Below, one piece after another: positions 41,024-61,632 of a DNA stretch of 64,000 nucleotides; the stretch's first letter is position 1; the number at the start of each line of letters is the position of its first letter. The stretch is from Deltaproteobacteria bacterium (GTDB lineage Bacteria > Myxococcota_A > Polyangia > Polyangiales > JADJMO01): positions 3,181 through 67,180 of the forward strand of contig JACPFM010000071.1 in assembly GCA_016182965.1 (NCBI GenBank), read 5' to 3'. Under the pieces are notes generated by a model. That model made no database searches. It had not been told where the DNA came from and saw nothing but the letters and a program-made list of their open reading frames with translations. The translations under genes and the position numbers were made by a program.

Positions 41024-41128
41024 CCCTAGCTAGCCAGTAGGGTGCTCACGCCGGAGGACCCAAGCCGATGCCCACCCCTCGGGGTGAGATCGACGAGATA
41101 CCCATGATGCCAGATCGGCCACGATCCT

Positions 41129-45590: not shown

Positions 45591-45596
45591 TCGGCA

Positions 45597-45692: not shown

Positions 45693-45743
45693 CTGCAAAG
45701 CATCTGGCGGGAGACGTGGGCGGTCGAGCAGGCGACGGTCGCG

Positions 45744-47072: not shown

Positions 47073-47135
47073 CGGACGCCGGAGGCCCCGTCGCGTCGCT
47101 CGAAGACTTCTGTCGCGGTGCGTCATCTTCGCGCT

Positions 47136-47495
47136 ATGCTGTCGGCGATGATCGCGATCCGTGGCGCCGTCGAGGTCGACGCCGATACGGCCGAGGCCAT
47201 CGGCCGTGCCGTCGACGCTCTCTGCGCCGAGCTCACGCGCGCCAACGCGCTCGACCCGGGAGAGATCGTCTCCGCCTTCTTCACGCTGACGCCCGATCTC
47301 CACGCCGCGTTCCCTGCGCTCGCCGCGCGCAAGCAGGGCTGGGGCGACGTGCCGATGATCTGCGCGCAAGAGATCGACGTCCCCGGCGCGCTGCCCCGCG
47401 TCTGCCGCGTGCTGTTGCACGTGCGCCGCGACGCGCCCGGCACGCACGTCTACCTCGGCGGCGCGCGCAAGCTGCGGCCCGACCTGTCGCCGTGA
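47136..47495 (+). CDS. aroH: Chorismate mutase, AroH class
   Basis: (MLSA)MIAIRGAVEVDADTAEAI....SAFFTLTPDLHAAFPA.AAR...W.DVPMICAQEIDVPGALPRVCRVLLHV aligns by eye with B. subtilis AroH. The start may be 47148. Confidence 0.85.
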   Translation: MLSAMIAIRGAVEVDADTAEAIGRAVDALCAELTRANALDPGEIVSAFFTLTPDLHAAFPALAARKQGWGDVPMICAQEIDVPGALPRVCRVLLHVRRDAPGTHVYLGGARKLRPDLSP

Positions 47496-48313
47496 TCGTC
47501 GGGATCGTCGGCCTCGGGCTGCTCGGCGGGTCGTTGGCCCGCGCGCTCGCGCAGGTCGAGACGCGCGTGATCGCGGTCGATCCCGATCCGTCGGTGCGCG
47601 CCGAGGCCATCGAGCTGGGCGTGGTCGCCGAGGCGCACGCCGACGTCGGCCCGCACCTCGCCGCGTGCGACGTGGTGGTCCTCGCCGCGCCGGTGGCCGC
47701 CATCGAGGCTCTGCTCGCTCCGGTGTCGCAGTCGATGCACCAGGGCGCGGTGCTCACCGACGTCGCCGGGATCAAGCGCAGCGTGCTCGACGCCGCAGCC
47801 GACGCGGTGCACCCCGACGTGCGGTTCGTCGCGGCCCATCCGATGTTCGGCGGCGAGAGCGGCGGGTTCGCGGCGTCGCGCGCCGAGGTCTTCCAGGGCG
47901 GCGTGGTCGCGATCTGTGACGACCGCCTGCCGTTCTCCCCCGCAAGGGAGCACGAAGAGGCCATCGAGCAGGTGTCGGCGCTGTACCGATCGCTCGGCGC
48001 GCACGTCCTCCGCTGCGGCGCCGACGCGCACGACGCCGCGGTCGCCAAGGTCTCGCACCTGCCGTACGTCGTTTCGCACGCGGTGTTCGAGGTCGCCGCA
48101 GGCGACGCGCTCGCCGAGGCGCTCGCCGGCCCGGGCTTCCGCGGCGCGACGCGCCTCGCGGCGTTCGCCTATGGCGTGCAGGGCGAGGTCGCGCGTCGCA
48201 ACCCCCACTTGCCGGCTGCGATCGACGCGATGATCGATCGGCTGCGCGCGCTGCGCGACGCGCTCGCGTCCCCCGACGACGCGCGGCGCGCGCTCGCGCC
48301 CAAGCGAAGATGA
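47492..48313 (+). CDS. tyrA: Prephenate/arogenate dehydrogenase
   Basis: GTG overlaps the aroH stop. Rossmann IVGIVGLGLLGGSLA, ...DVAGIK..., ...FVAAHPMFG.... Pathway context with aroH. Confidence 0.85.
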   Translation: MIVGIVGLGLLGGSLARALAQVETRVIAVDPDPSVRAEAIELGVVAEAHADVGPHLAACDVVVLAAPVAAIEALLAPVSQSMHQGAVLTDVAGIKRSVLDAAADAVHPDVRFVAAHPMFGGESGGFAASRAEVFQGGVVAICDDRLPFSPAREHEEAIEQVSALYRSLGAHVLRCGADAHDAAVAKVSHLPYVVSHAVFEVAAGDALAEALAGPGFRGATRLAAFAYGVQGEVARRNPHLPAAIDAMIDRLRALRDALASPDDARRALAPKRR

Positions 48314-48376
48314 TCACGGAGAGGCGGGGACGAGGGAGGGGGAGGATTCGGGGGGGCCGTCCACGCCTCTCCGTGA
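48314..48376 (+). terminator. Long-loop hairpin immediately after the tyrA stop (13-bp stem, G-tract-rich loop)
   Basis: tcacggagaggcg ... cgcctctccgtga. The 37-nt loop contains the runs gggg, ggg, ggggg and ggggggg. Confidence 0.35.
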
Positions 48377-48555
48377 CGCGCTGCTTCATGCAGCCTGCCG
48401 CCGCCGCTCGCAATGGGCGATCCCCGTCGCGTCGGGCACGCCGAACGACGAAAGGTGCAGACGCTTGATGCGTCGCAGCAGGGCCGTGGGACGGGCCGTT
48501 CGTGCCGTGTCGGAACGCGCGCGAACGCGAGCGGCCAGAGGCGCGACACGTTCTC

Positions 48556-48591
48556 GTTCGACCGTCGACGTTCGACCGTCGGCCCGGTCCG
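48556..48591. repeat. Solo right-arm fragment of the heptamer hairpin family, copy R7
   Basis: ttcgaccgtcgacgttcgaccgtcggcccggtccg closely parallels the R2 right arm plus its cccggtccg tail. Confidence 0.65.
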
Positions 48592-48663
48592 CGCGAGCGA
48601 CACCGAGGTGGCGGTCACCATCCGCGAGCAGCCCATTCATCGGCAAGTTAGGATGGCGACGCG

Positions 48664-49878
48664 ATGTGTGACACGGCGGTCGTGGTCGGCGCGAGCGGCG
48701 TGCTCTTCGCCAAGAGCTCCGATCGCGATGCGAACGAGGCGCAGCTGCTCGAGTGGCACCCGCGCCGTCGCAGCGAGCCCGGCGCGCGCGTGCGCTGCAC
48801 GTGGATGTCCATCCCTCAGGTGCGCGAGACGAACGCGGTGCTGCTGTCGCGGCCGTTCTGGATGTTCGGAGCCGAGATCGGCGCCAACGAGCACGGGGTC
48901 ACCATCGGCAACGAGGCGGTGTTCACGCGCGAGGCGGTGCCGGCGATCGGCCTCACCGGCATGGACCTCTTGCGCCTCGCGCTCGAGCGCGCGTCGACGG
49001 CGAAGGAGGCGGTCGACACGATCGTGTCGCTCGCCGAGGAGCACGGGCAGGGCGGGCGCTGCGGCCACGAGGACCCGGGCTTCCGCTACTTCTCGAGCTT
49101 CCTCGTCGCCGATCCGCGTCGCGCCTACGTGCTCGAGACCGCGGGGCGCGCCTTCGCCATCGAGGAGGTGCACGGCGCGCGCACCATCTCCAACGCGCTG
49201 AGCATCCCGTCGTTCGCCGCCGCCCACGCCGCCACGCTCGTTCCGTGGGCCATCGACGCGCGGGCGCGGCGCGCGTGCACGACCGCGGCCTTCGGGCGCG
49301 CGCGCAGCGCCTCCGACGCGATGGCGGCGCTCCGCAGCCACGGCGACGGGGCGATGGCGGCGCGGCCCTCCTACGGTCCGCTGGTCGGCGCCTCGCGCGG
49401 ACCGTGCGCGCACGCCGGCGGCCTCGTCGCCGGCATGCAGACGGTCGCCTCGTGGGTGGCCGAGCTGCGCCCCGGCGGCGTCGCCCATTGGGTGACCGGC
49501 ACCGCCGCGCCCTGCACCTCGTTGTTCAAGCCGGTCGCGGTCGACGAGCCCCTGGATCTCGGACCGACGCCCGCCGATCGAGACGACGGTCGCTCGCTTT
49601 GGTGGCGTCACGAGCGGCTCCACCGCGCGGTGATGCGCGATCCGGCTCGTCTTCTGCCGCTGTTCTCGGCCGAGCGCGACGCGGTGGAGGCGCGCTGGGC
49701 GATCGCGCGTCCGGGCTCGCGCGCCGCGTTCGCCGAGGCCGACGCGCTGCTCGCCGCCTGGACCGAGCGCCTCGAGCGCCTCGAGCGGCTCGATCGCGTG
49801 AAGGGCGAGTCGGTCTCCGATCGTCGGCCGCCCTGGGCGCGGCGCTTCTGGCGCGATCGCCAGGAGCGCGCGCGATGA
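48664..49878 (+). CDS. C69-family (secernin-like) Ntn-hydrolase dipeptidase
   Basis: N-terminal MCDT (nucleophile Cys2), ...VLFAKSSDRDANEAQ..., ...FGAEIGANEHGVTIGNEA.... Typical C69. Confidence 0.8.
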   Translation: MCDTAVVVGASGVLFAKSSDRDANEAQLLEWHPRRRSEPGARVRCTWMSIPQVRETNAVLLSRPFWMFGAEIGANEHGVTIGNEAVFTREAVPAIGLTGMDLLRLALERASTAKEAVDTIVSLAEEHGQGGRCGHEDPGFRYFSSFLVADPRRAYVLETAGRAFAIEEVHGARTISNALSIPSFAAAHAATLVPWAIDARARRACTTAAFGRARSASDAMAALRSHGDGAMAARPSYGPLVGASRGPCAHAGGLVAGMQTVASWVAELRPGGVAHWVTGTAAPCTSLFKPVAVDEPLDLGPTPADRDDGRSLWWRHERLHRAVMRDPARLLPLFSAERDAVEARWAIARPGSRAAFAEADALLAAWTERLERLERLDRVKGESVSDRRPPWARRFWRDRQERAR

Positions 49879-51476
49879 GCAAGGTCCGCTCCGAGCGCGA
49901 CCTCCGCGAGGCGGTGCGCGATCGCTCGTTCGTGCCCGCGCGCGCCGAGCTGCCCGCGGTCGTGCAGCTGCTCGGGAGCGACGAGGACGCCGACGCGGCC
50001 GAGCGCGCGCTGGCCCGCGCCGGCGACGCGGGGGCGCGCGCCGCGATCGCGGCGTTCGAAGACGCGAGACCGCCGCTGCGTGGGCGCATCGTCAAGACGG
50101 TCGCGCGCGTCCCAGGCTTCGAACGCTGGCTGCTCGACCGCCTCGACGACGAGGACGGAAAGACGCGCCGCAACGCGATCGTCGCGCTCGGTCGGAGGCC
50201 CGAGGGGCCGGCGGGCACGCCGACCGAAGGAGACCTCGGCGCCGAGATCGAGGAGCGCCTCGCCGCGTCGTGGTCGCAGGAGCCTCGCGTCGAGCACCGG
50301 CGCTCGATCGCCGCCTCGCTCGGGAAGATCGGCGACGCCCGCGCCCTCGAGGTGCTGCGCGCGGCGCGCGACGCCGAGGACCCGGAGCTTCGGCGCATCG
50401 TCGGCGAGGCCTTGGTGAAGCTCGAGCGCACCGCCGCGCGCGAGGAGCGCGGGGCGATCGACGTCGCCGCGGTCCCGTCGCAGCCGCTGCTGGTCCGCTT
50501 CCGATGTCGGCGCGGCCTCGAGGAGGTGCTCGAGGAGGAGCTCGACGAGCTGTCGCCGAGCGTGGTCGGACCGGGCGTGATCGAGGCGCGCGCCGCGCTC
50601 TCCATCGCGAGCCTCTACCGCGCGCGCACCGCGCTCTCGTTCGGCTGGGTGCTGCCGGTCCCCTCGCGCGGCACGGTCGAGGAGCGGGTGGAGGAGGCGA
50701 TCGTCGCCGCCGCCCCGCTGCTGCGCCGGCACACCATCGGCCCGATCACCTGGCGCCTCGACTGGATCGGGGCCGGGCACCGGCGCGCGGCGACCTTCCG
50801 CGTCGCGCGCGGCGTCTCCGCGCGCCGCCCCGAGCTGCGCAACGATCCGACCGCGAGCCTGTGGGAGATCGCCGTGATCGGAGCGGACGACGGCATGAGC
50901 GTCGAGGCGCACCCCAAGGGCGCCGCCGATCCGCGCTTCACGTATCGCGTGGCCGACGTGCCAGCGTCGTCGCACCCGACGATCGCCGCGGCGCTCGCGC
51001 GTGCCTCCGGCGTGCGGCGCGACGAGGTGGTGTGGGATCCGTTCGTCGGCGCCGGCGCCGAGCTCATCGAACGCGCACGCCTCGGCGCCTGCCGCGCGCT
51101 GTACGGCAGCGATCTCGATCCGCGCGCGATCGAGGCGGCGCGCGCCAACGTCGCCGCCGCCGGCGTCTCCGCGGTGCTCGCCGTGTCCGATGCGCGCGAG
51201 TCGCGCCCGCCCGAGCCGGTATCGCTCGTCATCACCAACCCGCCGATGGGTCGCCGCGTGCTGGACCGACGGGCCCTCGAGCCCCTCTTCGAAGGGGTGT
51301 TCGCCAATGTGCGGGCGGCGCTGCGGCGCGACGGCCGCGTGGTCCTCCTGTCGCCGCTCTTCGGGCGCAGCGTGGAGATGGCCGCGCGACACGATCTGCG
51401 CGTGGTGCGCCGCGGCGCGGTCGATCTCGGCGGCTTCGACGCGGAGCTGCAGGTGTTCGAGGTGCGACGACGATGA
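49875..51476 (+). CDS. THUMP-like / class I SAM-dependent (N6-adenine or m2G type) RNA methyltransferase with an N-terminal HEAT-like region
   Basis: ATG overlaps the upstream stop. SAM motif I VWDPFVGAGAELIE and catalytic LVITNPPMG (NPPY-type). N-terminal ~190 aa are helical repeats. Confidence 0.7.
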   Translation: MSKVRSERDLREAVRDRSFVPARAELPAVVQLLGSDEDADAAERALARAGDAGARAAIAAFEDARPPLRGRIVKTVARVPGFERWLLDRLDDEDGKTRRNAIVALGRRPEGPAGTPTEGDLGAEIEERLAASWSQEPRVEHRRSIAASLGKIGDARALEVLRAARDAEDPELRRIVGEALVKLERTAAREERGAIDVAAVPSQPLLVRFRCRRGLEEVLEEELDELSPSVVGPGVIEARAALSIASLYRARTALSFGWVLPVPSRGTVEERVEEAIVAAAPLLRRHTIGPITWRLDWIGAGHRRAATFRVARGVSARRPELRNDPTASLWEIAVIGADDGMSVEAHPKGAADPRFTYRVADVPASSHPTIAAALARASGVRRDEVVWDPFVGAGAELIERARLGACRALYGSDLDPRAIEAARANVAAAGVSAVLAVSDARESRPPEPVSLVITNPPMGRRVLDRRALEPLFEGVFANVRAALRRDGRVVLLSPLFGRSVEMAARHDLRVVRRGAVDLGGFDAELQVFEVRRR

Positions 51477-52114
51477 TCCACGATCGAATGCTCCGAGCGC
51501 TGGCCGACGTGGCGGCGCAGGCCTGCGCCGGGCGACCGCCCGCGCACGACTTCCTCCACGTCGAGCGCGTGGCCGCGCTCGCGCGCACCATCGGCCAGGC
51601 CGAGGGCGCGCGCGTCGACGTGGTGGTCGCCGCCGCGCTTCTCCACGAGCTGATCAACCTGCCGAAGGACCACCCGGAGTCGCACCGCTCGGGCGATCTC
51701 TGCGCCGAGGAGGCGATGAAGGTGCTCGCCGGGGCGGGCGTCGCCGCCGACACCGCCGAGCGCGTCGCCGCGTGCATCCGCGACCACGCGTTCTCGAAGG
51801 GCGCCGCGCCGCCGACGTTCGAGGCGGCCGTGCTGCAGGACGCCGATCGGCTCGATGCCATCGGCGCGATCGGCGTCGCGCGGTGCTTCGCCACCTGCAG
51901 CGAGATGAAGCGGCCCTTCTACGCGCCCGACGATCCCTTCTGCGAGGCGCGGGCGCCCGACGACAAGCTGTGGGGCCTCGACCATTTTTTCCGCAAGCTC
52001 CTGCGCATCGAGGAGGGCCTGCACACCGAGACGGCGCGGGCGATCGGCCGCGAGCGCACCGCGTTCCTGCGGACGTACCTCGCCCGGCTCGAGGCGGAGC
52101 TCGCCGGGCGCTGA
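51473..52114 (+). CDS. HD-domain phosphohydrolase
   Basis: ATG overlaps the upstream stop. H..RV......AALLHEL (His...HD-like), ...LQDADRLDAIGAIG.... YedJ-like HD family pattern. Confidence 0.8.
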   Translation: MIHDRMLRALADVAAQACAGRPPAHDFLHVERVAALARTIGQAEGARVDVVVAAALLHELINLPKDHPESHRSGDLCAEEAMKVLAGAGVAADTAERVAACIRDHAFSKGAAPPTFEAAVLQDADRLDAIGAIGVARCFATCSEMKRPFYAPDDPFCEARAPDDKLWGLDHFFRKLLRIEEGLHTETARAIGRERTAFLRTYLARLEAELAGR

Positions 52115-52119
52115 CAGGA

Positions 52120-52372
52120 GTCGTCAGTCGTCAGTCGTCAGTCGTCAGTCGGCTGAATCTTCAGCGCCGCGGTCGAAGGTCGAAGGCCAGGGGCCAAGCC
52201 CCTGGAACCCCGGGCAGCATCGGCCTTGTTTCGACCTTCGACGTTTGCCCGTCGCCTCCGAACGGTGCGAGGCCTATTCCCTGGAAAGGTATGCCCGCCA
52301 TCTGCGGGACTTGTACGTCGAACTCGCCGATACGGCGGGAGGAAGGCCGGCACGTGACTGACGACTGATGAC
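52120..52372 (+). repeat. Heptamer-array/hairpin composite element, copy R5
   Basis: (GTCGTCA)4 at 52120-52147. Arms ggtcgaaggtcgaagg / ttcgaccttcgac around ccaggggccaagcccctgg. A 110-nt tail. Degenerate inverted array tgactgacgactgatgac at 52355-52372. Confidence 0.85.
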
Positions 52373-52402
52373 CCCGTCCTTCGCGAGCAGCGACTCGCCG
52401 AC

Positions 52403-53377
52403 CTACCCCACGATCTCGATCTCGGTGCCGAGCCCCTTGGCGCGTGCGGCGGCGTAGATGACGCGCGCGAGCGCGACGTCCTGGATCGCAAGGCCGGTGC
52501 TGTCGAACACCGTGATCTCGTCGTCGCTCGCGCGGCCGGGGAGGCGGCCGATGACGACCTCCCCGAGGGTGCCGTGGATCTGCCTCGCGTCGTAGATGCC
52601 CTCGTGGATGGGGACGTTGACCTCGCCGGAGTGGGTCGCCTGATCCCAGTCGTCGACGACCACCTTGGCGTCGACCAGCACGTTGGCATCGAGCTCCTGT
52701 TTGCCCGGCGCGTCGGCGCCCATCGCGTTGAGGTGCACGCCCTTCGGGACGAACGCGCGCTTGACGATGGGGGTCCGCACCGGCGTGGAGGTGCAGACGA
52801 TGTCGCAGGCACACGCCTCCTCCAGGGAGCCGACCCGGCCGGAGGCCTCGCGCGCGAAAGCCTCCGCGGCGTCGGTGCGCACGTCGTGCGCGACGACCTG
52901 GAGCTCACCGAAGACGACCCGGTGCGCATCGAGCAGCCAACGCGACTGCACGCCGGCGCCCACGAAGCCGAGGGTGCGCGGCAGCTTGCGCGCCAGGTAC
53001 TTGGACGCGACCGCGGCGGACGCGCCCGTGCGGGCGGCCGTGAGGATGGTGCCGTCCATGATCGCGAGCGGCACCGCCGTGTCGGGATCGGACAGCACGT
53101 AGACGGCCATCACCGCGGGCAGGCCGTGCTTCTCGGGGTTCTTGGGGTGGGAGTTGACCCACTTCACGCCGGCCGACGCGCCCGTCGGATCGTCGAAATA
53201 CGCGGGCATCGCCCGGAAGTCCCCCTCGTGGCGGTCGAGCGACAGGTACACCTTCGAGGGCATCAGCGCGGTGCCGCGCGCGTGGGCGGCGAACGCGGCC
53301 TCGATCGCGGGGACCGCCTCGTTCATCGAGACCACGGCGCGGACGTCGGCGTGCGAGAGGATGAGCGTCTTCGGCAT
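52403..53377 (-). CDS. Ornithine cyclodeaminase / mu-crystallin family enzyme
   Basis: ...GVKWVNSHPKNP..GLPAVMAVYVLSDPDTA.PLAIMDGT.LTAARTGA..AVASKYLA. and Rossmann GFVGAGVQ. Classic OCD/CRYM blocks. Confidence 0.9.
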   Translation of the reverse strand: MPKTLILSHADVRAVVSMNEAVPAIEAAFAAHARGTALMPSKVYLSLDRHEGDFRAMPAYFDDPTGASAGVKWVNSHPKNPEKHGLPAVMAVYVLSDPDTAVPLAIMDGTILTAARTGASAAVASKYLARKLPRTLGFVGAGVQSRWLLDAHRVVFGELQVVAHDVRTDAAEAFAREASGRVGSLEEACACDIVCTSTPVRTPIVKRAFVPKGVHLNAMGADAPGKQELDANVLVDAKVVVDDWDQATHSGEVNVPIHEGIYDARQIHGTLGEVVIGRLPGRASDDEITVFDSTGLAIQDVALARVIYAAARAKGLGTEIEIVG

Positions 53378-53438
53378 GGGCGGGCGAGCATATCGCCGGA
53401 CCCCACGTTCCGTCAGCGCGTCACGTGCGTCACGTGCG

Positions 53439-54458
53439 TCAGGTGACGAACGCGCGCACGACGCTGCGCCACAACGGCGCCGCGCCGGCCATCTCGCCGA
53501 CGAGCACCGCCTCGGCGGCGGCGCGATCGGCGCGGACGCCCGCGGCCGCGAGCCGGCGCGCGATGTGGTCGGCGACCGTCCAGCGCGTGACCAGATCGAG
53601 CCGGGCGTGCGCGAAGGTGCCGCGCTCGACCCACTCGAGGCCCCAGATCTCGTCGGCGATCCAGTCGGCGAGGATCGCCTCGGGGCGCTCGATCGTCGCG
53701 GTCCGCGCCTCGGCGCGGTCGAACGCCGGCGCCCAGGGCCTGTCGCGCAGGCCGCGCACGGGCACGTCGTGCAGCGACAGCAACGCGTCGCCGAACCACG
53801 CGAGCGCCTGCCCGCACGAGGACCCGTCGAGCTTGCTGCGATAGTGGTGCGCGACGTCGGTCCAGCTCACGTCCTCGAGCTTCGGGAACGGCTCGGCGTC
53901 GAGGACGGCCTTCGTGTCTTCGCCGGCGGCCAGGCGCGCGAGGAGGTCGCGCTCGAGGCGCTCCCAGCGCGCGAAGGGCACGCGGCGACGCGCGTCGAGC
54001 CGCACGGTCTTGCCGACCACCACGTCGGCCCCGAGCCGCCCCGCGCCGTCGCGGAGCGAGCTCCACGCGTCGGCGAGATCGATCGGCGGCCGATCGCCCA
54101 TCGTGCGGCAAGGGCAGCGGTGCTCGGTCGACACGCGTCGGCCTTCGGGCGTGGCCACCAGCCGGTAGGGGAAGCGCCGGCAGACGGAGGGCTTGGCGAG
54201 CGGGCCATGCGCCGCGTGGACGCGACAACCGTCATCGCCGAGGTGCGTGCACGCGCCGTCGCGCGCCGCGACCACCGCCGCGCCGATGTGCGGGTTGTGC
54301 GCGATCGAATCGGGCGCGAGGACCGTGAGGCGGCGCACCTCGGACCGCGTGACCGGCCCGATGGCGTGCACGTCGGTGCAGCAGAGACCGTCGCCGAAGC
54401 AGCGGTATCGTGCGCCCGGGCGGCTCGCGAGTCGAGGGGGTCGAGGACGAGCGCTCAC
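53439..54458 (-). CDS. Cys-cluster (YkgJ/CxxCxxCC-like) protein, function unknown
   Basis: N-terminal YRCFGDGLCCTDVH...ACTHLGDDGCRVH...SVCRRFPY...HRCPC. This Cys pattern is reminiscent of the UPF0153/YkgJ family. Confidence 0.45.
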   Translation of the reverse strand: MSARPRPPRLASRPGARYRCFGDGLCCTDVHAIGPVTRSEVRRLTVLAPDSIAHNPHIGAAVVAARDGACTHLGDDGCRVHAAHGPLAKPSVCRRFPYRLVATPEGRRVSTEHRCPCRTMGDRPPIDLADAWSSLRDGAGRLGADVVVGKTVRLDARRRVPFARWERLERDLLARLAAGEDTKAVLDAEPFPKLEDVSWTDVAHHYRSKLDGSSCGQALAWFGDALLSLHDVPVRGLRDRPWAPAFDRAEARTATIERPEAILADWIADEIWGLEWVERGTFAHARLDLVTRWTVADHIARRLAAAGVRADRAAAEAVLVGEMAGAAPLWRSVVRAFVT

Positions 54459-54482
54459 GGGTGGCGTATAGGCCGTTTCGCC

Positions 54483-54959
54483 ATGAAGACCAACGCAGCG
54501 CGGGTGCTCGACGCGCTCGGCATTCCCTACGAGCTGCGCGCGTACGAGGTCGATCCCGACGACCTGACCGCGGAGACGGTCGCGCGCAAGGTGGGCCTCC
54601 CGGCCGAGCAGGTGTTCAAGACGCTGGTCGCCAAGGGCGATCGCAAGGGCGTGTGCCTCGCCGTGGTCCCCGGCAACGCCGAGCTCGATCTCAAGGCGCT
54701 CGCGAAGCTCACCGGAGACGCGCGCCTCGAGACGGCGCCGCTCAAGGAAGTGCAGCCGCTCACCGGCTACGTCCGCGGCGGCGTCACCGCGTTCGCGTGC
54801 AAGAAGGACTATCCCGTCTTCGCAGACGAGACCCTCGAGCTCTTCGACGTCATCTCGGTCTCAGCGGGGCAGCGCGGACTGCAGATTCTGCTGTCACCGG
54901 CGGATTACCTGCGCGCGACCAACGCGAAGCTCGGGCCCATCGCGCGCGACTTCCGCTGA
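54483..54959 (+). CDS. ybaK: Cys-tRNA(Pro)/Cys-tRNA(Cys) deacylase YbaK
   Basis: MKTNAARVLDALGIPYELRAYEVDPDDL.AE.VA.KVG....VFKTLV.....GV.LAVVPG...LDLKALAK..G; GYVRGG.TAF. Full YbaK pattern. Confidence 0.9.
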   Translation: MKTNAARVLDALGIPYELRAYEVDPDDLTAETVARKVGLPAEQVFKTLVAKGDRKGVCLAVVPGNAELDLKALAKLTGDARLETAPLKEVQPLTGYVRGGVTAFACKKDYPVFADETLELFDVISVSAGQRGLQILLSPADYLRATNAKLGPIARDFR

Positions 54960-55034
54960 CGCGCCCCGCCTGACGCGGCCGCGTCGACGCGGCCGGAATC
55001 GATCCCTCGAGCGCACCCGGTGGCGCACGAGCGC

Positions 55035-55415
55035 TCAGATGTTCTCCTCGATGCCCTTCCGGCGCTCCGCCGGCGTACGCAGGTGCGGCGGGTGGGCAGG
55101 GCTGGTCTCCGACTCGTCGGGCTGCTCGAAGCCCTCGGGGACGTCGAATGGCCGGCCGAGATCGCCCGGATCGCGGTGACAACCGGACGGCGGAGGACCG
55201 CCGCCCTTGGCCCCCGGGTGCCCTGGCGGGAGCTCGCCCGACGGCGGCATCGCGAGGTTCGGCAGCGCGTGCGGGGCACTCGACCAGTGCTCGCCGATGA
55301 GGACGGGCTCGGACGATTCACAGCCGAGCGAGGCAACGCTCGCCGCCCCAACCATGCCGACCATGGCGACCACGGTGACGGGCGCGGCGATGGGCGCGAG
55401 GAGACGTCGGAGCAT
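55035..55415 (-). CDS. Small hypothetical lipoprotein
   Basis: MLRRLLAPIAAPVTVVAMVGMVGAASVASLGC lipobox. Pro/Gly-rich mature part. Confidence 0.45.
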   Translation of the reverse strand: MLRRLLAPIAAPVTVVAMVGMVGAASVASLGCESSEPVLIGEHWSSAPHALPNLAMPPSGELPPGHPGAKGGGPPPSGCHRDPGDLGRPFDVPEGFEQPDESETSPAHPPHLRTPAERRKGIEENI

Positions 55416-55518
55416 CACGCTCACAGCCGGATGCGCATGCCGTACCAACACCTACCGTGCACGCGCGGCCTCGACCGCGCGGGCTCATGGCCGTCTCATC
55501 CGCGGGGAGGCGTGCGGC

Positions 55519-56331
55519 TCACTGCCCGCTGAACCGTCCGGCGCGTCGCTCCACGAACGACTGCATACCCTCGCGCGCGTCGTCGCTCGCCATCACCGGC
55601 TGCAGCTCGGCGAACAGCCGAGCGGCGAGGGCGGGCTCGTCGGGCTGCGCGGCGCGCCGCGACTCGAGCATCGTCGTGCGGACGCCGAGCGGGGCCTGGG
55701 CGGCGATCGTCTCGGCGATGGCGAGCGCCCGATCGAGGTGCGCGCCCGCCTCGACGACCTCCTGAACGAGACCGATGCGGTGCGCCTCGGCCGCGTCGAA
55801 CTCGTCTCCGGTGAGGATCCAGCGCATCGCGTTGCCCCAGCCCGTCTCGCGCGCGAAGCGGATCGTCGCGCCGCCGAACGGGAAGATCCCGCGCTTGACC
55901 TCGAGCTGTGAGAACCGACACGTCTTCGAGGCGACGCGGACGTCGCACGAAAGGGCGAGCTCGATGCCGATGGTCATGCAGATCCCCTGAAGCGCGCACA
56001 CCACCGGTTTGTGGCGCACCGCTCCGTGGAGACCGAGCGGATCGACCGCGCCGTCGCGCATCGGAAAGCGCCCGCTGGCGAACGTCGGCGCCATTTGCAC
56101 GAGGTCGAGCCCGCCGGTGAAGTGATCGCCGTGCGCGAACAGCACGGCGCACCGCACCTCGGCGTCCTGTTCGAGCGTGGTGTACGCCTCGGCCAGCTGC
56201 TCGAACATCGGCGGATCGAACGCGTTGCGCTTGGCGACGCGATCGAGCCCGATGAGCAGCAGGTGACCGCGCCGGTCGACGGAGATCGTGCGCTCGCCCT
56301 GCCTGCGTTCGGCGTCTGCCTCGGAGGTCAT
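55519..56331 (-). CDS. Enoyl-CoA hydratase/crotonase family protein
   Basis: ...AVLFAHGDHFTGGLDL..., KPVVCALQGICMTIGIELALSCDVRVASKTCRFSQLEVKRGIFPFGG.... Confidence 0.85.
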   Translation of the reverse strand: MTSEADAERRQGERTISVDRRGHLLLIGLDRVAKRNAFDPPMFEQLAEAYTTLEQDAEVRCAVLFAHGDHFTGGLDLVQMAPTFASGRFPMRDGAVDPLGLHGAVRHKPVVCALQGICMTIGIELALSCDVRVASKTCRFSQLEVKRGIFPFGGATIRFARETGWGNAMRWILTGDEFDAAEAHRIGLVQEVVEAGAHLDRALAIAETIAAQAPLGVRTTMLESRRAAQPDEPALAARLFAELQPVMASDDAREGMQSFVERRAGRFSGQ

Positions 56332-56364
56332 CTCGCGAGCCTACCCGCGCTATGGTGCCTGTAC

Positions 56365-57576
56365 ATGACCGATCGGATCGCCGAACGCGTGCGCGCCGTC
56401 CTGCCGCGTGTGGTCGAGCAGAGACGAGATTTCCACCGTCACCCGGAGCTCGCGTACGAAGAGGTCCGCACCAGCGGCAAGGTGATCGAGTGGCTCGGGG
56501 CGCTCGGGCTCGAGGTGCGGTCGGGCATCGGCAAGACGGGTGTGATCGCGCGCCTGCGCGGCGATCGGCCCGGCAAGACCATCGCCCTGCGCGCCGACAT
56601 GGACGCGCTGCCGGTGCAGGAGGCCACCACACACGGCTCCGCGAGGCACGGCTTCGCGAGCCTGGTCGCAGGGAAGATGCACGCGTGCGGCCACGACGTG
56701 CACACCGCGATGCTGCTCGGCGTCGCCACCGTGCTGAGCGAGCTCCGAGACCAGATCGCCGGCGAGGTGCGCTTCCTCTTCCAGCCCGCCGAGGAGGGGC
56801 TCGGCGGCGCCGTGCCGATGATCGAGGCGGGCGCGGTCGACGGCGTCGATCTCGCGCTCGGTCAGCACATGGGACCGACGCACCCGACGGGCACCATCGC
56901 GCTCTCGCGCGGCCCGGCGATGGCCGCGACCGACTTCTTCACGCTGAAGATCCTCGGCCGCGGCGGCCATGGCGCGTATCCGCATCTGTCGGTCGACGCC
57001 ATCCCCATCGCGGCGCAGGTCGTCACCGCGCTGCAGACGATCGTGTCGCGGTCGGTCGATCCGCTCGAGGCGGCGGTCGTCACCATCGGCACCATCCAGG
57101 GCGGGTTCCGCAACAACGTCATCGCGCCGGAGGTCGAGATGACCGGCACCGTGCGCACCTTCGATCGCACGCTGCGCGAGTCGCTGCCCGCGCGCGTCGA
57201 GCGCATCGTCCGCGGCGTCGCCGACGCGCACGGCGCGCGCTACGAGCTCGACTACGCGCTGAACTACCCGGCGGTGGTCAACGATCCGACGGCCGCGCAG
57301 CTGCTCGAGCGCGCGGCGGCCGAGGTGCTCGGAGCGGATCGCGTGCAGGTGATCCCGCCGTCGATGGCGGGAGAGGACTTCGCCTATTACGCCGAGCGCG
57401 TACCCGCGTGCTTCTACTGGCTCGGCTGCCGACCGCTGGGCGCGCAGGACTTCGCCAACCTGCACAGCCCGTCGTTCGCTCCGTCATGGCGCGCGCGGCG
57501 CTGGATTTCCTCGCGGGCACGCGCTGAGGCTGGCCGGGTTGCGCGACGCGGGAGCGGACTTATCGTCGCTCCGTGA
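56365..57576 (+). CDS. M20D-family amidohydrolase (hippurate hydrolase / N-acyl-amino-acid amidohydrolase type)
   Basis: FHRHPELAYEE, ALRADMDALP, HACGHDVH, FQPAEEG, ...GGHGAYPH.... The last ~30 codons look unnatural (see findings). Confidence 0.85.
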   Translation: MTDRIAERVRAVLPRVVEQRRDFHRHPELAYEEVRTSGKVIEWLGALGLEVRSGIGKTGVIARLRGDRPGKTIALRADMDALPVQEATTHGSARHGFASLVAGKMHACGHDVHTAMLLGVATVLSELRDQIAGEVRFLFQPAEEGLGGAVPMIEAGAVDGVDLALGQHMGPTHPTGTIALSRGPAMAATDFFTLKILGRGGHGAYPHLSVDAIPIAAQVVTALQTIVSRSVDPLEAAVVTIGTIQGGFRNNVIAPEVEMTGTVRTFDRTLRESLPARVERIVRGVADAHGARYELDYALNYPAVVNDPTAAQLLERAAAEVLGADRVQVIPPSMAGEDFAYYAERVPACFYWLGCRPLGAQDFANLHSPSFAPSWRARRWISSRARAEAGRVARRGSGLIVAP

Positions 57577-57857
57577 AGAAGTCGTCCGCGCTCTCGGTCC
57601 TGCGCCACCCGCGCGCGTTCGCTCGCTTCCTGGGCGATCGTGAGGCGCCGCTCCTGCCGCGGCTGTTCGCGCTCTTCGCCGTCCTCTACGTGGTGCTGCC
57701 GATCGACGCGATCCCCGATGCCATCCCCGTGATCGGGTGGCTCGACGACGTGGGCGTCATCGCCCTGGTCCTCGCGTGGACGTCGCGCACCGTCGCGAAG
57801 TACCGCACCGGCGGCGCAGATCGCGGCGATCCGCACGCCGTCGTCGTGCGCCGTTGA
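57573..57857 (+). CDS. YkvA/DUF1232 family membrane protein
   Basis: GTG overlaps the upstream stop. ...LFAVLYVVLPIDAIPDAIPVIGWLDDVGV... is the DUF1232 signature. Confidence 0.8.
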   Translation: MKKSSALSVLRHPRAFARFLGDREAPLLPRLFALFAVLYVVLPIDAIPDAIPVIGWLDDVGVIALVLAWTSRTVAKYRTGGADRGDPHAVVVRR

Positions 57858-57912
57858 TCGGGTGACGGTTGATCGGCTGACGGGTGATCGGCCGACGGGT
57901 GATCGGTCGATC
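57853..57912. repeat. 4 x 15-bp tandem repeat overlapping the DUF1232 stop codon
   Basis: gttgatcgggtgacg / gttgatcggctgacg / ggtgatcggccgacg / ggtgatcggtcgatc. Confidence 0.8.
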
Positions 57913-58302
57913 GGCGCCGGGCGCGTGATCCCGCCCGTGAATCGGTTCGCGGCGAGCTCGTGGATCGGTTGGCCGAGCGCGTAGCAGGGCGCGGAGTCGA
58001 GCGCGTCCCGCCGAGCGTGCAGAGCACGGACGATGCGGCGTCGCGCGCCCCGCGTACGCAACGCGGCGACCGATCGCGGCCGGCACGCCCTTCGCTGAGC
58101 TCGAGCCGGTGAGGAGTGCTGAGCCGACGGCGGCGAATCTGACCGACCTCGCTGAGACTTCGCTGAGGAGGAGGGGGGGCCGGACGTCGGGGGTCGAGCG
58201 GTTCCACGCGGCGCGAGCTCGCCGCGGTGACGGGGCGAACCGTCTTCGGGAGGCCGCTCGGCCCTCGGCCCCGGCGTTCTCTTGATTGTGACAGCGGACA
58301 GG

Positions 58303-58331
58303 TTGACACCGCCGACTGTAACGGTTATCGA
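58303..58331 (+). promoter_or_regulatory. Candidate sigma-70-type promoter (TTGACA-17 nt-TATCGA)
   Basis: ttgaca at 58303-58308, a 17-nt spacer, and tatcga at 58326-58331, in a locally AT-richer patch about 40 nt upstream of a strong SD plus ATG. Confidence 0.3.
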
Positions 58332-58370
58332 TGCGACCAACGGCTGGGCCAGCAACCGAGGAGGTCGCCC

Positions 58371-58505
58371 ATGCACTGCGGACTTCGAGAACCCCGGGAA
58401 CATCGAGAACACGAGAGCCCGGCCGGCCAGTGGATGCTCGCGCTCATCGCGCTCGGGTTCCTGTGGCCGACGTTGATCATGGTCGGCCAACGGTTGCACC
58501 CGTGA
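58371..58505 (+). CDS. Candidate small membrane protein (44 aa), translationally coupled to the MerR-family gene
   Basis: SD gaggagg lies 6 nt before ATG 58371. MHCGLREPREHREHESPAGQWMLALIALGFLWPTLIMVGQRLHP has a C-terminal TM helix. The stop TGA overlaps an in-frame GTG of the MerR ORF (GTGA). Confidence 0.35.
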   Translation: MHCGLREPREHREHESPAGQWMLALIALGFLWPTLIMVGQRLHP

Positions 58506-58543
58506 GCGCGGCGCTTTCTTGCGCCGAGCCGGCCGGGGGACCG

Positions 58544-59308
58544 ATGCTGGGCGACGACGTGACCCAGACCCCGAACGCGCCCGCGAAGCAGGAGCCGTCG
58601 CTGACGATCGACGAGCTCGCCGCCGCGTCGCGCATCCCGAGCCGGACGATCCGCTTCTACCAATCCAAGGGCGTGCTCGGCTCGCCGACCGTCCGCGGGC
58701 GGGTCGCCTATTACGGCCCGCAGCACCTCGAGCGCCTCAAGCTGATCGCGCAGCTGCAGGATCGCGGGCTGCGCATCGACGCCATCCGCGCGCTGACGAC
58801 GCGCATCGACAAGGGGGAGCTCGACGTCGCCGAGTGGCTCGGGCTCGACGCCGAGTTCCGCGCGCCGTGGGGCGACGATCGACCGCGCACCATGACCGAG
58901 GCGGAGCTCCTCGAGCTCGCCGGCGAGGCGCGTCGCGACGGCCTCATCGCGGATCTGGTGCGGCACGAGCTCGTGCAGCGGCAGGGCGAGGTGTACCTCG
59001 TGTCGAGCCCGGCGCTGCTGCTGTTGTCGGTGCGGCTGGAGGCGGTCGGGATCGCCATCCCGGTCGCCGCCGCGGCGACGAAGATCCTCGAGAAGCACCT
59101 GTCGCGCGCCTCGCGCGAGCTGTCGGACTTCATCCTCGAGCGGGCGCGCACCGGCGACGACGCGCGCGTCGAGGGCCACGTGCAGGACCTGCGGCCGATC
59201 GCCCTCGACGCCGTGCACGTGCTGTTCGCCCGCGAGATGGAGCGCGTGCTCCGCGAGATGGCCGAGTCGGGCCAGACGGCGAAGCTCGGGAAGAAGAAGC
59301 CGCGCTGA
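58544..59308 (+). CDS. MerR family transcriptional regulator
   Basis: LTIDELAAASRIPSRTIRFYQSKGVL...YYGPQHLERLKLIAQLQDRGLRIDAI is a MerR wHTH plus a dimerisation helix. The start is ATG 58544 or the upstream GTG 58502. Confidence 0.85.
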   Translation: MLGDDVTQTPNAPAKQEPSLTIDELAAASRIPSRTIRFYQSKGVLGSPTVRGRVAYYGPQHLERLKLIAQLQDRGLRIDAIRALTTRIDKGELDVAEWLGLDAEFRAPWGDDRPRTMTEAELLELAGEARRDGLIADLVRHELVQRQGEVYLVSSPALLLLSVRLEAVGIAIPVAAAATKILEKHLSRASRELSDFILERARTGDDARVEGHVQDLRPIALDAVHVLFAREMERVLREMAESGQTAKLGKKKPR

Positions 59309-59313
59309 CGACA

Positions 59314-59565
59314 GTCGTCAGTCGTCAGTCGTCAGTCGTCAGTCGAGACGTTGCCCATTCGCGACCGCGGCGCCGCGCGAGGCCCCGGCGGGCGGGGTCG
59401 AAGGTCGAAAGTCGAAGGTCGAAAGCCTGAAACGGAGAGACCTGCTCCGTTCGACCTTCGACCTTGGACCTTCGACGCTCGACCCGGTCTGCCACAGCCA
59501 GCGCACGGCGGGCGCCCGCGACGGCGCGGCTCACGACTGACGACTGACGACTGACGACTGACGAC
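59314..59565 (+). repeat. Heptamer-array/hairpin composite element, copy R6 (most complete)
   Basis: (GTCGTCA)4 at 59314-59341. The left arm ggggtcgaaggtcgaaagtcgaaggtcgaaag (59394-59425) pairs with the right arm cgttcgaccttcgaccttggaccttcgacgctcgaccc (59448-59485). tcacgac plus (TGACGAC)4 at 59531-59565 abuts the stop of the minus-strand gene. Confidence 0.9.
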
Positions 59566-61632
59566 TCAAAGGACCTTCACCACGTCGCGCAGGAAGATGA
59601 CGACGATGCCCATCAGGCCCTCGCCGGCGATGACGCCGCTGGCGACGCTGACCGTGTAGCGGTCGGCGAGCTCCTTGCGCTTCTTCAAGAGGCTCCAAGC
59701 GGCGAGCGCGCCGAGGAACATCGCGAAGCTGTCGTTGAAGTCGATGACCAGCGCGATGCCGAGGCCGGTGGCGCTCGGGACGAAGGTGGTCCACGCGGGC
59801 TTGGGCGGGGGCTTGGCGTCCGGATCGCGGTCGGGCAGGCGCGCGTCGGCCTGGAAGCGCGCGACCTCGCGCGCGTGCTGGCGCGCGCCGATCTCCTCCA
59901 GCACCGCGATGAGCACGCCGATCGACGCGCCCACGACGATGCCGGCCAGCGCCAGCGTGGGCAGGTTCTTCGCGCCGTCCTTCAGCAGCTTGGCGACCGA
60001 GGCCCAGGCGACCGCCGCCGGCGCGGCGAGCTCGTTGCCGAGCTTCTCGGGCTTGGCGACGAGGAAGTACACCGGCACGCACACCGCGGCGCCGGCGAGC
60101 ACGCCGAGCATCTGCGCCCAGAACTGCTTGCGCGGCGAGCCGCCGAGCAGGTACCCGGTCTTCACCTCCATCAGCAGATCGGCCGAGTGCGACGCGGCGC
60201 CGGCGGTGACGGTTGCGGTCATCAGGTTGGCGGCCGCGTTGCCGGGGACGAGCACGCCGAAGAGGAGCTGGGTGATCTTCCCCATCGCGCCGATCGGCGT
60301 GACGCCCGTCTCGCCGGTCGCGCGCGCCGCCACGACCGAGAGGAGGAACGCCGCCGCGACCGAGACGGTACCCTCGAGGATCGGCACCGCGAACCACGCC
60401 CACTGCATGTACACGCACGCGACGGCGCACGCGGCGAGGCCGAGCGCGAACCAGCTCTGCGGCACCTCGACCGAGGCGAGCGGGTCCTCGTTCCGCGCGG
60501 CGCCGCGGCGGAACATGCCCGACAGGCCGGAGAACGCGCGCGCGACCGTTCGCCAGCGGAAGGCGAAGGCCACGATGCTGGAGCTCACCATGATCGCGGT
60601 GCCCGGCCACACGCTCCACTTCGAGCGGAGCGTCGCGTGGAGCGCGTCGGGCACCTTCACCGGGATCGCGTGCACGGCCTCCGCGGCCTTCGCGAACGAG
60701 AGCCACCTCGCGGGATCCGCGGCGATCTCGGGCGGCGCGACGCGGAGCACGCCGTGATCGACGAGCCAGGGCGCCACGATCGCGTAGTCGAGGACGGCGC
60801 CGATGAGGAGCGAGGTCGCCACCTTCACGCCGACGATCGCGCCTGCGGCGTACAGGAGCAGGCTCGTGTTGGCGCCGAGCGACCACGCGCCCATTCCGTG
60901 GCCTCGCAGCGACCCGGGGAAGGGGATCACCTCGGGGATCCGGCGGAGGAACCCGGGCTTCGACTCGAGGGCGAGCTTGAGCGCCGCGGCGCCGATCGCC
61001 GCCGCGAAGAGCGAGCGCGCCTTGGCCATCGACGCGCGACCCGCCGAGTGCATGGTGCGGATCGTCTCGGCGCACACGACCCCGCCGGGGAAGCGCAGCT
61101 GCTCGGCGTTGATCATGTTGCGCTTGAGCGGCACCGCCACCACGACGCCGAGCACCGACACGCCGAGCATCCACGCGGCCAGGCGATAGCCGTCGAGATC
61201 GGGGATGGAGATGGTCCCGTCCTTGCGCAGCATGGCCATCGCCGGGATGGAGCTGACCAGGCCGGCCGAGGACATGTACGCCGCCGCCGACGCCGCGGTC
61301 TGCGAGGTGTTGTTCTCGAGCATCGACAGCGGGCGCATGCCGGGGAACACGCCGCGCAGCGCCGCGAAGATCGCGAAGCCGACGACCGCCGAGGTGATCC
61401 CCATGCCGAACGACCAGCCGATCTTCAGCCCGATGTAGAGGTTGGACGCGCTGAGGATCGCGCCGAGCGTCATGCCGGTGATCGCCGCGCGGAAGGTCAG
61501 CTGGGGCTCGTCCTTCTGGTAGACCTGCTCGAGCCACAGCCGGTCGCGCGCGGCGATCGCCTCGGGGTCGCGCAGCGGCACGGGATCGATCGGGAACGGT
61601 GCGGCGGTCGACCCCGTGTCCTCGGACGCCAT
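59566..61632 (-). CDS. OPT family oligopeptide transporter
   Basis: ATG 61632 (MASEDTGST...). QLTFRAAITGMTLGAILSASNLYIGLKIGWSFGMGITSAV.... About 16 TM helices; typical OPT N-terminal block. Confidence 0.85.
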   Translation of the reverse strand: MASEDTGSTAAPFPIDPVPLRDPEAIAARDRLWLEQVYQKDEPQLTFRAAITGMTLGAILSASNLYIGLKIGWSFGMGITSAVVGFAIFAALRGVFPGMRPLSMLENNTSQTAASAAAYMSSAGLVSSIPAMAMLRKDGTISIPDLDGYRLAAWMLGVSVLGVVVAVPLKRNMINAEQLRFPGGVVCAETIRTMHSAGRASMAKARSLFAAAIGAAALKLALESKPGFLRRIPEVIPFPGSLRGHGMGAWSLGANTSLLLYAAGAIVGVKVATSLLIGAVLDYAIVAPWLVDHGVLRVAPPEIAADPARWLSFAKAAEAVHAIPVKVPDALHATLRSKWSVWPGTAIMVSSSIVAFAFRWRTVARAFSGLSGMFRRGAARNEDPLASVEVPQSWFALGLAACAVACVYMQWAWFAVPILEGTVSVAAAFLLSVVAARATGETGVTPIGAMGKITQLLFGVLVPGNAAANLMTATVTAGAASHSADLLMEVKTGYLLGGSPRKQFWAQMLGVLAGAAVCVPVYFLVAKPEKLGNELAAPAAVAWASVAKLLKDGAKNLPTLALAGIVVGASIGVLIAVLEEIGARQHAREVARFQADARLPDRDPDAKPPPKPAWTTFVPSATGLGIALVIDFNDSFAMFLGALAAWSLLKKRKELADRYTVSVASGVIAGEGLMGIVVIFLRDVVKVL

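Follow-up and report, generated by a model that had tools for sequence, protein, structure and literature searches.

A nested heptamer palindrome at gene boundaries of a Polyangiales-related myxobacterium

Among the long simple repeats of many bacterial genomes, heptanucleotide arrays are reported to be the commonest, and slippage has been proposed as their source (Mrazek 2007, as cited in PMC4679880; PMC4692102 also proposes polymerase slippage for heptamer repeats). Here, we analyzed a 64,000-nucleotide (nt) stretch of contig JACPFM010000071.1 (hereafter the window, meaning the whole stretch) from an uncultured Polyangiales-related myxobacterium, in which positions 59314–59565 (copy E) belong to a family of non-coding, palindromic elements of 150–290 bases built from two heptamers. 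[quoted passage not shown] It is an unusually clean case of a heptanucleotide array, combining a recent one-lineage expansion, empty sister sites, unique internal markers, strict polarity and precise placement between convergent stops, and the spread of arrays and their effects on neighboring transcripts thereby become answerable questions.

Paired heptamer arrays have been described in several bacteria. The GGGAATC tandem heptamers of Xanthomonas number approximately 185 per genome, form two convergent opposite-strand arrays able to make stem-loops in 70–75 cases per genome, and are rare between divergent genes (Rehm et al. 2015, PMC4692102). The window family is like them in its tandem heptamers, its convergent pairs, and the same placement and polarity rule. 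The Xanthomonas unit, however, is G-rich and forms G-quadruplexes, whereas the window units, having no run of three or more G, cannot. In addition, unlike the Xanthomonas repeats, the window element is nested, joining two heptamers with unique linkers and a conserved GC hairpin, and is accompanied by empty-site evidence of insertion, which we did not find for the Xanthomonas repeats in PMC4692102. In Geobacter metallireducens, “multicopy nucleotide sequences”, interpreted as putative global-regulator sites, form species-specific families of short tandem arrays, mostly opposite-strand pairs at variable distance, one class of which comprises five heptanucleotides MTYCTGA (Aklujkar et al. 2009, PMC2700814). 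The CTGA core of MTYCTGA is like that of TGACGAC, but the Geobacter units are otherwise different, some being octamers or nonamers, some families lie inside genes, and no nested composite with shared linkers is described. [quoted passage not shown] Like the window family, these repeats and the cyanobacterial STRR (short tandemly repeated repetitive) heptamers are intergenic heptamer arrays, and TAACTGA contains a CAGT/ACTG core (reverse complement TCAGTTA); unlike the window family, TAACTGA repeats are AT-rich and come without inner arms or linkers and without insertion evidence. The sequence-only reading of this DNA had called the 7-nt period unusual for REP/BIME/MITE families. The period is not an unusual one: heptamer arrays are common (PMC4679880), and inverted pairs beside stop codons occur in Xanthomonas (PMC4692102) and Geobacter (PMC2700814). 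The window family, with tandem intergenic units at eight sites in 64 kb, convergent array pairs and stop-codon proximity, has the features of such paired inverted heptamers.

A second body of work concerns extragenic palindromes. GTAG- and CGTC-tagged REPs of E. coli and Pseudomonas are high-copy extragenic palindromes located mainly 3' of genes, between unidirectional or convergent open reading frames (ORFs), each unit being a single 20–40-bp palindrome with an 8–9-bp stem, a 4–5-nt loop and an unpaired GTAG or CGTC tag (PMC3733652). The window family shares with REPs, BIMEs and REPINs (REP doublets forming hairpins) its extragenic 3' location, inverted dimers giving larger hairpins, mosaic units with linkers, and decayed singlets; its arms, however, are tandem heptamer arrays, and copies A–F (listed below) contain no tagged short REP palindrome. 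BIMEs and REPINs are mosaics of palindromic units with specific linkers and decayed singlets, and they share with the window family a presumed mobilization in trans. MITEs, such as Correia elements and Rickettsia palindromic elements, are like the window family in being 100–300 bp long and non-coding, with inverted ends and insertion polymorphism, and bacterial MITEs are co-transcribed as hairpins. Presence/absence polymorphism of this kind was found at five junctions of the window, whereas the ends of the window elements are variable-length tandem arrays, not the fixed terminal inverted repeats of MITEs. Among narrower candidates, the CGTC-tagged REP, considered since GTCGTCA contains CGTC, was rejected because its stem, loop and tail definition did not fit, and SARP-type (Streptomyces antibiotic regulatory protein) heptameric direct repeats and HutP/TRAP-type RNA sites were dropped since spacing or context differs. 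Our literature search, incomplete in coverage, found no description of this composite or of myxobacterial heptamer palindromes. The composite is new, whereas its kind, the bacterial heptamer repeats of Xanthomonas, Geobacter, cyanobacteria and Beggiatoa, is already reported.

Copy E and its sister copies in the window

We read the sequence at 59306–59568 directly, and the composite architecture proposed for 59314–59565 from the sequence alone proved correct. Copy E is a 252-nt near-perfect palindrome consisting of (GTCGTCA)4, a linker, (GGTCGAA)4, a loop, (TTCGACC)5, a second linker and an outer right array, and it takes up the spacer separating a MerR-family gene's stop codon from that of an OPT transporter gene. 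Its parts are as follows.

59306–59313, plus strand: left junction; an inverted TGACGAC unit that contains the MerR-family stop TGA (59306–59308), with A after it
59314–59345, plus strand: outer left array, (GTCGTCA)4 at 59314–59341 plus GTCG
59346–59395, plus strand: left linker, pairing imperfectly with the right linker; 54 nt when counted from the end of (GTCGTCA)4
59396–59423, plus strand: inner left arm, four GGTCGAA-type units (equivalent to GTCGAAG)
59424–59449, plus strand: central loop of 26 nt, with a small CGGAG/CTCCG hairpin
59450–59484, plus strand: inner right arm, five TTCGACC-type units
59485–59530, plus strand: right linker of 46 nt, starting CGGTCTGCC and resembling linker 2
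59531–59565, plus strand: outer right array, TCACGAC + (TGACGAC)4
59566–59568, minus strand: stop codon of the OPT gene, TCA on the plus strand (OPT profile positions 1–622 of 623 matched)

Two details of the earlier description needed amendment. The right array, given as (TGACGAC)5, is present but has only four perfect units, the fifth being degenerate (TCACGAC); and the “two different heptamers” are both there but are related to each other, GGTCGAA in tandem being equivalent to GTCGAAG and both units consisting of GTCG plus three bases in the same polarity. Both read GTCG... on the left and ...CGAC on the right. Tandem Repeats Finder reports every period-7 array of copy E. The expected folding as a long interrupted hairpin was recovered: as RNA, copy E (263 nt) forms one such hairpin at −182 kcal/mol (z = −12.7), and as DNA it folds at −110.8 kcal/mol (z = −11.8).

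In addition to copy E, the window has four copies that carry outer arrays, an arm-only hairpin, and two or three fragments of half-arms; every one of them is intergenic. The sister copies named by the sequence-only reading were all found in place and between genes, and its count of at least eight copies stands as eight sites in 64 kb, with a possible ninth, degenerate fragment in addition.

15951–16151, plus strand: copy A; about nine GTCGTCA units, followed by linker 1 and four GGTCGAA units, and then a CCAGGGGC-GGA-GCCCCTGG hairpin, GGGCTCTCG and (TTCGACC)4, without a right outer array; between tandem plus-strand genes, one for an S8 peptidase and one TMEM260-like
40337–40422, plus strand: copy F; arm-only hairpin (GGTCGAA-type, TTCGACC-type), then linker 2; between divergent ECH and FKBP genes
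41459–41707, minus strand: copy B; read on the minus strand, the stop TGA of the short-chain fatty acid (SCFA) transporter gene, (GTCGTCA)5, linker 1, arms, the CCAGGGGC hairpin, second arms, about 70 nt, and a degenerate array
45597–45692, plus strand: copy C; truncated, (GTCGTCA)8, linker 1 and GGTCGAAGGTCGAC; between a convergent TLC/MFS gene and a minus-strand gene at 45744–46980 with no Pfam match
52120–52372, plus strand: copy D; (GTCGTCA)4, arms, a CCAGGGGC-CAA-GCCCCTGG hairpin, arms, a variable stretch of about 110 nt, and a degenerate TGACGAC/TGATGAC array; between convergent HD and OCD genes
293–321, plus strand: half-arm fragment of four TCGACC(A/T)-type units; between tandem plus-strand genes
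48556–48599, plus strand: half-arm fragment, TTCGACC-type units and linker 2 (CGGTCCGCGCGAGCG); between tandem plus-strand genes
5346–5366, plus strand: possible ninth, degenerate arm fragment, GGTCGAAGGGCGAAGGTCGAG; a weak match

Pattern searches of the window were compared with dinucleotide-preserving shuffles. With up to two mismatches, (GTCGTCA)3 matched 26 times (0.00 expected) and (GGTCGAA)2 matched 34 times (0.74 expected), and the composite array–gap–arm pattern matched nine times (0 expected). Both outer arrays are present in copies B, D and E, and both inner arms in copies A, B, D, E and F; the number of units per array ranges from 3 to 9, and the terminal inverted repeats, namely the reverse-complementary outer arrays, are of variable length. 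The other copies fold less perfectly than copy E, yet beyond all shuffles (z = −5.0, −4.5 and −3.4 for three outer-array copies and −5.6 for copy F). Three of the eight (copy C and the fragments at 293 and 48556) are truncated or half-arms unable to fold, which looks like the decay of a palindromic repeat.

The copies also share sequences outside the heptamers. A full copy has five kinds of module: outer GTCGTCA arrays, linker 1 or 2, inner GGTCGAA arrays, a GC hairpin, and a CTCTCG junction. Linker 1 (GAATCTCTCGTCGAGCTTGGTCGAA, 25 nt), between array and arm, is found in three copies of the window against 0 expected, and linker 2 (TTCGACC-CGGTCCGCG(C)GAGCG) in two against 0.07 expected. The hairpin CCAGGGGC-N3-GCCCCTGG followed by AACCCCG occurs exactly three times (at 16070, 41599 and 52187; 0.04 expected), as the earlier reading had it for three copies, and GGGCTCTCG-N-TTCGACC is common to two. 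These modules are variously combined, with two linker types and several loop types joined to arrays and arms, and some copies are one-armed or reduced to arms or half-arms. Because unrelated loci share unique non-heptamer sequences, the copies were dispersed by copying, and independent slippage is not their origin; we take this dispersal as shown.

An origin in place without mobility is improbable in our judgment. It would have heptamer slippage acting independently at each locus, followed by template switching in the hairpin that makes the two sides complementary. Slippage is the process proposed for heptanucleotide repeats as the commonest long simple repeats (PMC4679880 and PMC4692102), and three observations agree with it: unit number varies from 3 to 9 between copies; the viral loci L139 and L141 (below) have identical flanks with different yet arm-matched arrays; and perfect arrays of at least three units at the 107 GTCGTCA-bearing loci listed from GTDB species representatives number 196 for period 7, compared with 2, 3, 5 and 2 for periods 5, 6, 8 and 9 (all such wider-class statistics cover array-selected loci only, L001–L107). 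What slippage cannot account for is that unrelated loci, and different organisms as well, have the same 25-nt linker, linker 2, GC hairpin and CTCTCG junction. The complete nesting order is repeated among the copies, and the sequence of relatives covered here (below) is without any arrays.

The window has a G+C content of 72%. Genes were called with a codon-position G+C model, and about 50 of them were checked against Pfam. They are ordinary chromosomal genes, including those for transketolase, glucokinase, a sigma-54 activator, FKBP, the SCFA transporter, OPT, OCD and LigD Prim-Pol, and no transposase, integrase or RAYT was among them. All elements are in gaps between called genes. Copies with outer arrays occupy 4 of the 11 convergent junctions and 1 of the 42 tandem or divergent junctions (Fisher p = 0.005). 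The distances from stop codon to array are 0, 0, 5, 5, 6 and 23 nt (0–6 nt in copies B–E), and the array reads GTCGTCA on the sense strand of the gene in every case. TCA directly follows the array at five ends in two organisms; at one of these ends (L128) it is apparently not a stop codon. The elements coincide with neither U-tract terminators nor sigma-70-like promoters; the GC-rich hairpin with U-tract of a Rho-independent terminator is absent from the elements. Terminator-like sites number four in the 20 kb at 40001–60000 against 3.9 expected, and one of them, at 59299–59312 (minus strand), overlaps copy E at its left junction only.

Two convergent spacers without a heptamer element, 36564–36816 (253 nt) and 54960–55518 (559 nt), are unusually long, the other element-free ones being 3–52 nt. 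Adjoining copy B is a 435-nt non-coding stretch (41024–41458) that holds nested long inverted repeats (41129–41157 with 41430–41458, and 41193–41247 with 41316–41370). The segment 41120–41465 folds at −203 kcal/mol (z = −10.7) and has no Rfam match. The 435-nt stretch is single-copy in all sequence fetched, and is absent from a relative (L118) whose flanking stops are 4 nt apart.

Orthologous junctions in relatives and the origin of the family

We fetched contigs of relatives via orthologous proteins; these contigs are syntenic with the window, and their junctions were read by eye. The named relatives are Polyangium and Sorangium, at 65–83% amino-acid identity. Synteny blocks from blastn end exactly at the elements, and all five orthologous junctions recovered are empty or much shorter in the relatives.

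MerR/OPT, convergent: 3 nt in relative L109 (cgcTGAgacTCAcag; the junction reads cgcTGAgacTCA), 257 nt in the window
HD/OCD, convergent: 58 nt in relative L109, 288 nt in the window
FKBP/SCFA transporter, convergent: 4 nt in relative L118 (TGAcccaCTA), 684 nt in the window
FKBP/ECH, divergent: 65 nt in relative L118, 245 nt in the window
TLC/next gene, convergent: 0 nt in relative L112 (TGACTA) and 12 nt in relative L115, 153 nt in the window

The relatives sharing the convergent pairs are at 70–95% amino-acid identity, with stop codons 0–12 nt apart at three junctions and 58 nt apart at the fourth. At MerR/OPT and FKBP/SCFA transporter, the protein C-termini are unchanged and the insert takes up precisely the space separating the two stop codons. 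The relatives' sequence, approximately 115 kb (L109, L112, L113, L115 and L118–L120), is free of perfect heptamer arrays of at least three units, whereas the window has eight. Elements are absent from relatives at 95%, 90%, 81% and 70% identity, which makes gain in the window lineage a more parsimonious account than recurrent loss. At MerR/OPT, the empty site reads TGA-GAC-TCA and the filled site TGA-CGACA[...]TGACGAC-TCA; the true element ends may be TGAGTCGTCA...TGACGACTCA.

A second assembly, L108, is 98.9% identical to the window and shows how a copy changes. Around copy D the flanks are identical, but the stretch of approximately 85 nt that separates the right arm from the right array differs, L108 having unrelated sequence and extra TGACGAC/TGATGAC units in its place (L108 6942–7220 versus window 52124–52402). 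Because this interior is replaced between identical flanks, the interior of a copy turns over faster than point mutation. The difference indicates module exchange or hypervariability within the element, and the replacement is most simply an exchange between copies. Considered together, the junctions and copies are taken to show insertion at gene boundaries, mainly between convergent stops, of a modular element with strict 5'-GTCG...CGAC-3' polarity and fast turnover.

An assembly or binning artefact is very improbable. Short-read Logan contigs of the same organism do end inside arrays, as such an error would suggest, and the practical effect is that short-read assemblies of this organism are interrupted wherever a copy occurs. 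However, independent assemblies (L108 and the 100% identical L117) carry the same junctions and element interior, and in eight JGI metagenome contigs from other samples, whole elements are embedded in longer sequence.

The explanation that we place first, as slightly more probable than not, is a selfish or neutral repeat with side effects; it ranks above a selected terminator or insulator (unlikely) and above local slippage and a protein-binding array (both more unlikely still). It comes first because sister species keep the convergent genes 0–12 nt apart without the element at three junctions and because many copies are truncated. Of the roles offered by the sequence-only reading, that of a non-autonomous mobile element fits best, given the empty sites, the shared linkers and a window without transposase. 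Copies would be made in trans, through either a transposase or recombinase whose gene lies elsewhere or recombination among copies. Replication slippage would lengthen and shorten the arrays and so set the unit number, and selection would remove insertions that break genes or promoters, confining the survivors to 3' spacers. A co-transcribed copy would give the upstream mRNA a very stable hairpin in its 3' untranslated region, which could hold off 3' exonucleases, limit read-through between convergent genes, or make terminating ribosomes stall. Such effects of 3' hairpins, namely stabilization, interference with read-through and ribosome stalling, have been reported for the REPs of E. coli. 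In the window family, effects on transcripts are probably by-products, not the reason for the element's existence.

Several points weigh against this explanation. Among the window genes no parent element or enzyme was found, and no gene bracketed by arrays, as in an autonomous parent, was seen in the window or in the JGI loci (L121–L128). Nine aligned inner modules gave no covariation supporting an RNA function. Random insertion plus selection does not readily account for insertion into 0–4-nt spacers, which is a hint of targeting and the best lead toward a targeting mechanism. The MerR/OPT junction fits a 3-bp GAC target-site duplication, but GAC belongs to the heptamer itself. The empty sites could formally reflect repeated loss in the relatives. 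Finally, heptamer arrays are over-represented in many genomes and are usually ascribed to slippage, and part of the element's structure may have grown in place in this way.

A rival explanation is a selected module between convergent genes, such as a bidirectional factor-independent terminator, an insulator, or an mRNA-stabilizing 3' hairpin, which would be kept because the genome is without canonical terminators. This explanation, which we rate as unlikely, accommodates the enrichment at convergent junctions, the extreme stability of the hairpins as RNA, the start of the arrays 0–6 nt past the stop codons in copies B–E, and the U-tract terminators, which in 40001–60000 do not exceed the chance number and are absent from element sites; in addition, (UGACGAC)n puts UGA in all three frames, and E. 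coli REPs have effects of this type. Liang, Rudd and Deutscher in 2015 and Newbury et al. in 1987 are said to have described such terminator- or stabilizer-type effects of E. coli REPs. A module kept for this purpose is nevertheless hard to reconcile with the same convergent pairs lying 0–12 nt apart at three junctions and 58 nt apart at a fourth, without the element, in relatives. Nor does it suit the three of eight copies that are truncated or half-arms unable to fold, copy F in a divergent promoter region, or the interior replaced between strains (copy D, L108).

The folding evidence likewise fails to support a selected structure. In the nine aligned inner modules, the arm pairs are invariant and the covariation term is −0.48, so that covariation is uninformative; mismatches within individual hairpin arms are uncompensated. 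The sequence-only reading had argued from conserved arms and variable loops to selection on structure, which is not shown: the arms are invariant without covariation, mismatches are uncompensated, and three of eight copies are truncated. An Rfam search of the whole window at gathering thresholds returned only a tRNA, and at an E-value threshold only generic miRNA-like hairpin matches far below gathering scores; thus, in line with the sequence-only reading, the element matched no Rfam family. A BLAST search of the element against plasmids and phages gave no match, although the low-complexity filter may hide arrays.

Composite elements and GTCGTCA arrays beyond the window

We scanned JGI metagenomes with the composite pattern and recovered eight loci (L121–L128) from three samples, belonging to other organisms with 66–70% G+C. 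They have the same nested module order, a (T)CGAGAG/CTCTCG junction beside one arm, and related linkers. Their small hairpin is CCGGGGG...CCCCCGG, an A-T to G-C compensatory change relative to the window copies and the sole compensatory change seen. The composite pattern had no match among 185,579 GTDB species representatives.

(GTCGTCA)3 alone is far more widespread, with at least 107 loci among the same representatives. These are distributed among Acidobacteriota, Chloroflexota, Actinomycetota, Planctomycetota, Verrucomicrobiota, Bacteroidota and cyanobacteria, and also occur in a Polyangia metagenome-assembled genome (MAG), in bacteria of the candidate phyla radiation (CPR), and in a Woesearchaeota archaeon. 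The 196 period-7 arrays mentioned above comprise 65 units. Among the loci listed, a CAGT/ACTG core is found in 32% of the non-query heptamers compared with 5.5% of all heptamer classes; GTTATCA arrays adjoin GTCGTCA arrays in L013 and L024. An ORF of at least 80 codons ends within 15 nt upstream of 26 of the 97 arrays, compared with 17 of 388 control positions, a six-fold enrichment (among the loci listed), while opposite-strand starts beside arrays do not discriminate, their control rate being 24%. By eye, right-hand arrays of the listed loci often stand directly before a ribosome-binding site (RBS) and ATG, and the upstream-of-start placement of TAACTGA repeats matches this (TGANNAC)n-RBS-ATG arrangement in other phyla. 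Among the matches listed, several MAGs contribute three or four loci apiece, Acidimicrobiia MO_035.B30, Lentimicrobiaceae SRP098346_co1_165 and Chloroflexia STL-CHL24 being examples, which suggests that array-rich genomes exist.

Polarity extends to these phyla. Of the 98 arrays (among the loci listed), 23 have an inverted partner (period-7 ACTG) no more than 200 nt downstream, and none has one upstream. Such strict polarity of 7-nt units, together with arrays adjoining gene starts and stops in many phyla, is what an iterated site for a nucleoid-associated protein, a global regulator or an RNA-binding protein would give, and a protein-binding role has been proposed for the paired arrays of Geobacter (PMC2700814) and for TAACTGA repeats (PMC4679880). 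We give a protein-binding array little credence for the window family: no candidate protein is known, the flanking genes share no common function, the sites are absent from relatives, and copy number and unit number vary freely.

Individual loci in other organisms repeat parts of the design. In a Thermomicrobiales MAG (SMAG_U3822; L081, approximately 4181–4330), the same nesting occurs with another inner unit, GGTCCCA, in the order stop TGA, (GTCGTCA)5, GGTCCCA-type arms, complementary TGGGACC, and TGACGAC/TAACGAC units. In the Candidatus Daviesbacteria MAG STD1_94, the same small (GTCGTCA)4...CTGA-type palindrome lies in frame in GyrB-like and LeuRS-like ORFs (L017 4208–4300 and L070 approximately 850–960; also L012). 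The inserts read SSVVSRQSSDKTSLKADSPDAIGTSLRTDGY and SSVVSRQSSDKKSLIADSEATPKAGEAILKTDSW, and both encode SSVVSRQSSDK.SL.AD...L.TD. They resemble Rickettsia palindromic elements, which sit inside genes, and as in-frame insertions in essential genes they support mobility of the wider class. Among IMG/VR viral contigs, L139 (7527–7650) and L141 (11833–11960) are near-identical, with the same flanks and different heptamer arms, TTCGACT-type in one and TTTTGACG-type in the other, each complementary to its partner arm. One 42-kb IMG/VR contig (L140, L142 and L145) carries four (GGTCGAA)n / (CTCTCGR)n palindromes. In viral contigs, (GTCGTCA)3 gave five matches, compared with 0 and 3 for two composition-matched controls, too few to call GTCGTCA special.

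A bolder interpretation, which we find doubtful, is that the window family is the local form of one pan-bacterial class of polar palindromes, 5'-(GTNNTCA)n...(TGANNAC)n-3', often nesting a second inverted array and placed at ORF boundaries, or in frame in CPR bacteria, by a widely distributed activity. The 23-to-0 polarity, the ORF-end enrichment, the period-7 excess, L081, the Daviesbacteria inserts and the 0–4-nt spacers point this way, and the activity could be a transposase or recombinase reading 7-nt iterons, or a replication-linked process. If true, this class would explain the dominance of heptanucleotide arrays among bacterial simple repeats, and interest in the family would rise if the cross-phylum polarity and boundary rules reflect one dedicated mechanism.

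Other tandem repeats of the window are of different kinds. Within a 1.9-kb stretch without a called gene are a perfect 26-nt tandem repeat of 3.8 copies (CGAGTCCGCAGGACGAGCGGGTCAAC; 24865–24964) and an 11/22-nt repeat of CTCGGGTGCAT type (25039–25107). In the same stretch, 27/81-nt repeats whose translation would be a Lys/Ala-rich peptide overlap an ORF at 25335–25688 without a Pfam match. At 9962–10056, a hexamer array, (CGCGTC) x 15.8, lies at the start of an ORF (9959–10874; no Pfam match).

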